Shown: piece by piece, positions 21,032 through 21,202 of the stretch
Layout of the letters: every line of letters begins with the position of its first letter
How positions within the stretch are numbered: position 1 is the first letter of the stretch
Assembly (NCBI RefSeq): GCF_003334405.1
Contig: NZ_QOWM01000010.1
DNA length: 64,000 nt
Reading direction: 5' to 3' (one strand)
From: Escherichia coli
GTDB lineage: Bacteria > Pseudomonadota > Gammaproteobacteria > Enterobacterales > Enterobacteriaceae
Program-made: the position numbers and the translations under genes
The notes under the pieces: generated by a model
What the model was told of the DNA's origin: nothing
Seen by the model: only the letters and a program-made list of their open reading frames with translations
Database searches by the model: none

Positions 21032-21198
21032 CCACTCCTGCTATGCTTAAGAAATTATTCATAGACTCTAAATAATTCGAGTTGCAGGAAGGCGGCAAAC
21101 GAGTGAAGCCCCAGGAGCTTACATAAGTAAGTGACTGGGGTGAACGAATGCAGCCGCAGCACATGCAACTTGAAGTATGACGAGTATAGCAGGAGTGG
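21032..21198. repeat. ERIC/IRU (enterobacterial repetitive intergenic consensus) element
   Basis: Core 21103..21146 contains GTGAAGCCCCAGGAGCTTACAT (1 mismatch to reverse complement of primer ERIC1R) and AAGTAAGTGACTGGGGTGAACG (1 mismatch to primer ERIC2); flanked by inverted repeats CCACTCCTGCTAT (21032..21044) and ATAGCAGGAGTGG (21186..21198). Confidence 0.75.
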
Positions 21199-21202
21199 CA
21201 GC

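Follow-up and report, generated by a model that had tools for sequence, protein, structure and literature searches.

The stretch of DNA analysed here (hereafter the window) is 64,000 nucleotides long and consists of K-12-type Escherichia coli DNA, in which the genes ispA (18237-19136), dxs (19161-21023) and yajO (21203-22177) follow each other on the + strand. The dxs gene codes for the first enzyme of the isoprenoid (MEP) pathway. YajO is named by RefSeq as a second 1-deoxyxylulose-5-phosphate synthase. A window position p was converted to the K-12 coordinate of U00096.3 as 459338 - p, and U00096.2 coordinates at this locus are those of U00096.3 minus 776, an offset that was checked against the yajO coordinates and the printed promoter string of Kim et al. 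(2012). The yajO start codon is the ATG at 21203-21205, at which the RefSeq annotation also begins, and it is shared by all 80 orthologous yajO loci compared (80/80). An in-frame GTG at 21131 lies inside the ERIC element described below and was rejected as the yajO start because it is missing from ERIC-free alleles. No repeat feature is listed within the dxs-yajO spacer in the RefSeq record NC_000913.3, and a literature search combining ERIC with yajO or dxs returned nothing specific. The features located at this spacer and its borders are the following:

19161..21023, + strand: dxs coding sequence, with stop codon TAA at 21021-21023 (open reading frame list; RefSeq annotation of identical DNA).
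20965..21176, - strand: antisense RNA of about 212 nt (Cappable-seq start; 3' end of Adams et al.; dsRNA cluster S-43).
21016..21024, + strand: TGgCATAAT, candidate extended -10 overlapping the dxs stop codon (proposed from the sequence alone).
21032..21048, + strand: native left arm, anti-Shine-Dalgarno (anti-SD) CCACTCCTGC with the invariant box TATGCT(TAA) after it (present in ERIC-free alleles).
21049..21061, + strand: native loop on the left side of the insertion site (same sequence in E. coli alleles lacking ERIC).
21062..21063, no strand: left TA copy of the target-site duplication (alignments of filled with empty alleles and of ERIC copies).
21064..21186, + strand: ERIC/IRU element proper, 123 nt (filled versus empty length; alignment of ERIC copies; Rfam V_AS5).
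21103..21146, + strand: central ERIC core with the ERIC1R and ERIC2 primer sites (42/44 bases identical).
21183..21191, - strand: antisense extended -10 TGcTATACT (sequence; Cappable-seq start exactly 7 nt downstream).
21187..21188, no strand: right TA copy of the target-site duplication (same alignments as the left copy).
21189..21198, + strand: native right arm GCAGGAGTGG with the yajO Shine-Dalgarno sequence (SD) AGGAG at 21191-21195 (all ERIC-free alleles; paired with the left arm in every fold).
21203..22177, + strand: yajO coding sequence (open reading frame list; RefSeq; orthologous loci); its first position is also that of the dominant Term-seq 3' end.

The presence of an ERIC/IRU element after dxs, which the initial annotation had recognised from near-perfect matches to both classical primer sites, was borne out by the core match, the alignment of ERIC copies and the comparison with empty sites. 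The 44-mer formed by the reverse complement of ERIC1R and by ERIC2, the standard primer pair cited together in 233 papers, matches positions 21103-21146 with 2 mismatches, and none of 100 shuffled sequences gave a match (0/100). A megablast search revealed that other ERIC loci match the spacer at 90-95% identity over about 130 nt, with 2-11 related places in each of 5,426 complete E. coli genomes. The copies located at pgk-fbaA, yafP-rtcB and ybhJ-ybhI align from TACTCT to GAGTATA and their similarity starts and stops at the ends of the element, so that the family limits obtained from the copy alignment are [TA]TACTCTAAAT...GACGAGTA[TA]. The spacer copy departs from the family consensus at its first base, with G instead of T (GACTCT versus TACTCT), and similarity to the other copies ends at 21188, before GCAGGAG. 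The element plus one TA copy amounts to 125 bp, equal to the length difference between filled and empty alleles, and a single TA is found at TTCATAGCGGG in the closest ERIC-free outgroup, Citrobacter sp. MGH106. Inverted repeats at 21062-21086/21164-21188 and 21109-21122/21127-21140 give the element a long imperfect-palindrome hairpin.

ERIC elements have been described as MITEs of about 127 bp with short terminal repeats, TA termini and target duplications (PMC2229807, PMC3184786). The core, the full-length similarity, the palindrome, the TA termini with their duplication and the presence/absence polymorphism were all found in the dxs-yajO copy, which is an ordinary member of the known family with nothing essential different. 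It shares with the elements reported as ERIC, IRU or RU-1 (Sharples & Lloyd 1990; Hulton et al. 1991; Wilson & Sharp 2006) the core, the palindrome, the terminal repeats and the TA duplication, as well as a transcribed intergenic location and variation in presence or absence among strains; peculiar to this copy are the T-to-G change at the first base, the target, a loop in a conserved host hairpin, and the existence of a long allele with a 78-bp insert. Rfam contains no ERIC family as such. Positions 1-129 of the covariance model RF02818 V_AS5 align end to end with 21061-21184 (E 5e-10), and the spacer copy was excluded from that family because with 52.5 bits it falls well short of the gathering threshold (96). 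Since Vibrios have been reported as ERIC carriers (PMC10969869), V_AS5 was probably built on a Vibrio relative of ERIC.

The ERIC element is bracketed by an outer inverted repeat of 16 nt (21032-21047/21183-21198) that is 94% complementary and includes the perfect 13-mers CCACTCCTGCTAT and ATAGCAGGAGTGG (21186-21198), of which the latter two had been noticed initially. The observation that the right arm stops 4 nt 5' of the yajO ATG also holds, and the only SD-like sequence in that region is AGGAG (21191-21195), 7 nt from the ATG. From these facts the initial annotation had concluded that a repeat element was co-opted as the translation initiation region of yajO, a claim that is refuted by the alleles lacking the element. 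The dxs-yajO spacer is filled in 2,844 of the 5,426 complete E. coli genomes and unfilled in about 2,582, and in the unfilled genomes sampled the junction matches over 355 nt versus 480 nt, that is, with a clean 125-bp gap. K-12 and O111:H8 are among the filled E. coli, and E. albertii is also filled. The O157 strain AR-0430 and strain SE15 have an ERIC-free spacer of 54 nt, TCCCTACTCCACTCCTGCTATGCTTAAGAAATTATTCATGGCAGGAGTGGCAGC-ATG, in which both arms and the SD are retained and CCACTCCTGCTATGCTTAAGAAATTATTCATGG is joined directly to CAGGAGTGGCAGCATG.

A scan for YajO in one genome per bacterial species yielded 80 Enterobacteriaceae loci, and ERIC-free spacers of 54-75 nt were found in 75 of them; together with the two E. 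coli strains they make up a set of 77 ERIC-free spacers. The sequence CTCCTGCTATG is found in 76/77, and AGGAG is placed 6-8 nt before the start codon also in 76/77. The exact right 13-mer occurs in six ERIC-free species. An SD donated by a mobile element would be missing where the element is missing, and here it is present. Since both arms and the SD are kept without ERIC, the ribosome-binding site and the hairpin that would occlude it are host sequence. In the 13-nt right arm only A21186 (the ERIC terminus) and T21187-A21188 (the target duplication) derive from the insertion. These three bases plus AGT (21183-21185) add about 6 pairs to the stem, and ERIC is therefore not strictly structure-neutral. 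That the outer repeats are ERIC's own and the right arm was taken over as the yajO ribosome-binding site, as the K-12-type sequence with its SD inside the right arm of the repeat around the ERIC core would suggest, is extremely improbable, given that both arms and the SD occur in ERIC-free E. coli and in 75 ERIC-free species and that the similarity of ERIC copies stops short of GCAGGAG. The outer inverted repeat was likewise rejected as an extended ERIC terminal repeat, with copies that diverge past 21188 and empty sites that keep the arms. The spacer should be annotated as ERIC (21064-21186) plus TA duplications inside a host hairpin and not as a repeat-derived ribosome-binding site. An inverted repeat around a palindromic mobile element can belong to the host, and only an empty-site comparison reveals it.

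The spacer of Citrobacter sp. MGH106 (locus L013:1447-1500), in which the SD is GGGAG, is far closer to the empty Escherichia allele than to other Citrobacter spacers; recombination or a mislabelled genus may account for this likeness.

A covariation analysis has been carried out on an alignment of 76 ERIC-free spacers. In a helix of 15 bp, 86.3% of the cells are paired, versus 31-52% when the partner is slid, and five helix pairs show changes on both sides. The number of double-change cells was 26, versus 5.4 +/- 1.9 in shuffled alignments, none of which reached the observed value (0/500). Pair 23-74 appears as CG, UA and UG, and pair 25-72 as GC, GU, AU and UA. Two traits speak for an RNA structure and against a DNA operator: the frequent G.U pairs, which pair on the sense strand only, and the variable loop, whose length ranges from about 16 to 37 nt. 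RNAalifold independently returned a 9-bp core with 3 compensated pairs, and the same SD-burying stem was folded in six ERIC-free species of five genera (Salmonella, two Klebsiella/Raoultella, Enterobacter, Atlantibacter and Citrobacter). A conserved anti-SD with compensatory changes, as expected of an SD-sequestering hairpin, is thus present. The Rfam 15 release has no family that covers the dxs-yajO hairpin, the only matches being ERIC-like and REP-like.

The filled allele folds with -81.5 kcal/mol (z -7.7) and stacks the ERIC hairpin within the outer stem; the empty E. coli allele folds with -29.2 kcal/mol (z -4.8). In predicted folds of transcripts that include the left arm the SD is wholly paired, in the filled as in the empty allele, with a partition-function probability of 0.000 that it is unpaired; when the 5' end lies past the left arm this probability is 0.39-0.69. 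The proposal that a hairpin of the repeat element could occlude the SD in a long transcript was consequently right as regards the predicted occlusion and wrong as regards the owner of the hairpin, which is the host. The arms and SD of ERIC-free alleles, together with a stem that covaries and folds uniformly, identify an ancient, Enterobacteriaceae-wide anti-SD:SD hairpin of the host, with ERIC inserted at a TA in its loop.

The minus strand at the right junction reads CCACTCCTGC-TA-TACTCGTC and contains a hybrid extended -10, TGcTATACT, of which TG belongs to the native arm, TA to the target duplication and TACT to the ERIC terminus. The Cappable-seq entry for this junction places an antisense start at U00096.2 437386(+), window 21176, with a relative read score of 38.7 that is comparable to the 47 given there for the pgpA start. 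Adams et al. (2021) reported an antisense 3' end at U00096.3 438373(+), window 20965, and the RNA defined by both ends runs across ERIC and the left arm into dxs, of which it covers the final 59 nt. Among the dsRNAs captured with p19 by Huang et al. (2020), cluster S-43 (U00096.2 437,393-437,579; window 20983-21169) was the fourth most abundant coding-gene cluster in stationary-phase K-12; this RNase III-processed cluster overlaps the antisense RNA, and it was called a new antisense RNA and ERIC was left unmentioned. In the empty alleles the matching minus-strand sequence, TGCCATGAA, is a poor -10, and we therefore infer that the ERIC insertion created the antisense promoter. This strong inward-facing promoter at the right ERIC/flank junction is the one demonstrable gain from the insertion, and it explains the previously unassigned S-43 locus of K-12. 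An effect of the antisense RNA itself may be supposed.

It is conceivable, but on balance unlikely, that ERIC is functionally important, with its dsRNA stem and antisense promoter leading to an RNase III cut between anti-SD and SD and to altered expression of yajO, dxs or both in strains with the element. The strong start of the hybrid promoter in the Cappable-seq entry and the position of such an abundant stationary-phase dsRNA cluster on ERIC are in line with this idea, as are the 98% identity of the ERIC between E. coli and E. albertii, with flanking genes at 91-94%, and the effect of Yersinia ERICs on mRNA stability as related in PMC2229807, PMC3184786 and PMC10969869. However, ERIC is missing in about half of the E. 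coli strains and in almost all other genera, and the SD is predicted to be fully paired in filled and empty alleles alike.

A long allele of the spacer (257 nt), with a 78-bp insert inside ERIC, is carried by 180 E. coli genomes, among them those of strain 042 and APEC O78:H4 E12049, and E. albertii has the same long allele as these two strains. The insert is structured, with CAAATCCGCATGGAGCGGATTTG...GGCCCATGGATGGGCC... (loci L005:451-707 and L007:1244-1500). The ERIC part is identical at 199/203 positions between E. coli and E. albertii, the dxs 3' end at 272/300, the yajO 5' end at 423/450 and the native spacer at 48/54. The terminal T-to-G change is common to the short, long and E. albertii alleles, which implies one insertion event. 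At the target the empty E. coli alleles have TG and not TA, and the right duplication copy of the long allele is also TG.

The insertion would have taken place, with TA duplication, at the loop TA located 2 nt before GCAGGAG, in one Escherichia lineage. It has also been considered that ERIC dates back to the common ancestor of E. coli and E. albertii, with empty E. coli alleles that are the product of a later precise excision and not ancestral. This history agrees with the single insertion event indicated by the unusual terminal base of K-12 (short), E12049 and 042 (long) and E. albertii (long), and the long allele without ERIC and the left TA is exactly the empty-allele TTCATGGCAGG, since its right duplication copy is TG. 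We regard it as rather improbable, as ERIC is regularly absent from the spacer in 75 other species and E. whittamii and either allele could have spread by recombination among Escherichia lineages.

Two Phytobacter species and "Kosakonia" sp. S29 have an ERIC of a clearly different subfamily at the orthologous TA that immediately precedes AGCAGGAG (loci L028:1315-1500, L032:1315-1500 and L040:1314-1500). In the metagenome-assembled relative UBA3516 only the two ERIC ends are left, as a remnant of an internal deletion in an 85-nt spacer (L039:1416-1500). The ERIC of the Phytobacter group is a second, independent insertion in the same loop, and these repeated hits hint at a preferred target.

The sense transcripts of the locus have been described in several data sets. 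The dominant K-12 Term-seq 3' end of Adams et al. (2021), 438135(-) with 38,352 reads, corresponds to window 21203, the A of the yajO ATG, 2 nt beyond the base of the stem of the composite hairpin. Its Rho score was 2.89, which is flagged as significant; its intrinsic-terminator score was 1.03, on a scale where values of at least 3 suggest intrinsic termination. The same authors placed a region of Rho termination at 438058 (window 21280); their lacZ fusion with the yajO 5' UTR and ORF was more than 2-fold up in rhoR66S. An intrinsic terminator after dxs was rejected: the stem is followed by CAGCAUGCAAUAC with no U tract, the terminator score is the 1.03 just given and a terminator scan of the + strand found none.

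The primer used by Adams et al. (2021) for cloning the yajO 5' UTR begins with TCCACTCCTGC, at window 21031, and their filtering rules imply a start site of Thomason et al. at most 200 nt upstream. A promoter with the extended -10 candidate TGgCATAAT (21016-21024), a motif that is not conserved in species with dxs ending in TGA, would plausibly start transcription near 21031. With such a start, the hairpin and ERIC may accumulate together as a discrete RNA of about 173 nt. Kim et al. (2012) reported a 5' end at window 21109, inside ERIC, with 19 reads. An ERIC-borne yajO promoter for this end was discarded, as the -10 position, AAACGA (21097-21102), is nearly without promoter character and the reads are only 19; because a -10 element is lacking, 21109 is read as a probable processing site. 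Another promoter proposed by a scanner, TTAAGA-18-AATAAT (21047-21076), was also rejected, as no reported 5' end fits it. For Klebsiella no yajO start site was found. The single "yajO" of the RNase III paper by Gordon et al. (2017) is a slip for yajQ (panE-yajQ locus) and irrelevant to this locus.

The whole set of observations is very probably explained by an old host hairpin with a younger ERIC in its loop, in which the SD is still buried and an antisense promoter has been gained. The older part is the C/U-rich anti-SD CUCCUGC, placed just past the dxs stop codon and paired with the yajO SD GCAGGAG, and the younger part is the 123-nt ERIC, a miniature transposable element. Because ERIC folds on itself, the native arms would still meet at its base and the SD would stay buried, so the element would neither provide nor release the yajO ribosome-binding site. 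From a transcript with the left arm, either dxs readthrough or one started at about 21031, yajO would be poorly translated; the untranslated yajO RNA would undergo Rho termination about 77 nt into the gene and be trimmed back to the hairpin base. Termination and trimming would account for the abundant 3' end at 21203 and would give the dxs message a structured 3' end. The K-12 3' end at the hairpin base and the Rho termination in early yajO fit a buried SD.

The box TGCTATGCTTAA (21040-21051; equivalents in loci L003-L085) adjoins the anti-SD and is invariant or nearly so in the 77 ERIC-free spacers. Base pairing accounts for only part of this constancy, and the absolute invariance of TATGCTTAA is left unexplained by pairing. 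The box resembles an extended -10, and no matching start site was found. The conserved AUG in CUAUGCUUAA was also considered as the start of a small upstream ORF and rejected, since this ORF lacks an SD and differs from species to species in length and stop codon.

The left box could be mainly a promoter, with TGCTATGCT as extended -10 and a yajO transcript starting from about 21055 without the anti-SD, in which case the hairpin would silence readthrough only. All 77 ERIC-free spacers agree in the TG, the TA and the last T of TGcTATGCT, a constancy that goes beyond the TAT/GCT pairing, kept in about half of them; the near-identical TGcTATACT of the opposite strand is a strong promoter in vivo, and with a 5' end past the box the SD is predicted to be substantially unpaired. 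Against these points, no start near 21055 appears in the published data examined, where Kim et al. (2012) give only 21109 and the 5' UTR of Adams et al. runs from 21031. This promoter reading is judged unlikely. Should most yajO mRNA start downstream of the left arm, the SD occlusion would be of little consequence.

Returning to the buried SD, anti-SD/SD pairing of a downstream gene is known from other SD-sequestering hairpins, such as that of adhE in the account of PMC5371410, where RNase III cleavage, cited there, relieves the occlusion of the ribosome-binding site. The hairpin described here is conserved and covarying, and, unlike the case of adhE, the repression of yajO is what its predicted fold would lead to. 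As for the ERIC, a counterpart in the articles just named for Yersinia (PMC2229807, PMC3184786, PMC10969869, relating De Gregorio et al. 2005) is the control of mRNA stability, which shares with the dxs-yajO locus a co-transcribed ERIC between operon genes and a long hairpin. Yersinia differs in that, according to those articles, unmasking of an RNase E site in an orientation-dependent manner destabilises the upstream message, whereas the RNA ends at dxs-yajO fit Rho termination and trimming to the hairpin. The Correia elements of Neisseria, as presented in PMC3184786 and PMC10969869, also form promoters between a MITE terminus and its flank and have an element region that yields RNase III products. 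They are an unrelated family from a different phylum, and the promoter at dxs-yajO faces inward, makes an antisense RNA and drives no neighbour gene.

Tentatively, the hairpin and the TGCTATGCTTAA box might together constitute an undescribed cis-regulatory module of Enterobacteriaceae that gates yajO translation and uncouples yajO from dxs through Rho, a module later rewired by ERIC in part of Escherichia; we think this view rather improbable. If it were true, the rewiring would consist in the addition of a strong antisense promoter and an RNase III substrate, and the polymorphism of E. coli, with filled and empty alleles at about 50:50, would be a natural experiment on a MITE altering a host riboregulator. 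A conserved switch silencing yajO on dxs transcripts would also bear on pathway engineering. The ERIC family is already known; what deserves a modest follow-up is the hairpin of the host together with the junction promoter.

Directly past the yajO stop codon, a weak Rfam match to naRNA4, a REP-derived nucleoid-associated RNA, was found on the - strand (22185-22253) with 24 bits, below the gathering threshold. It is probably a REP element located between yajO and pgpA.
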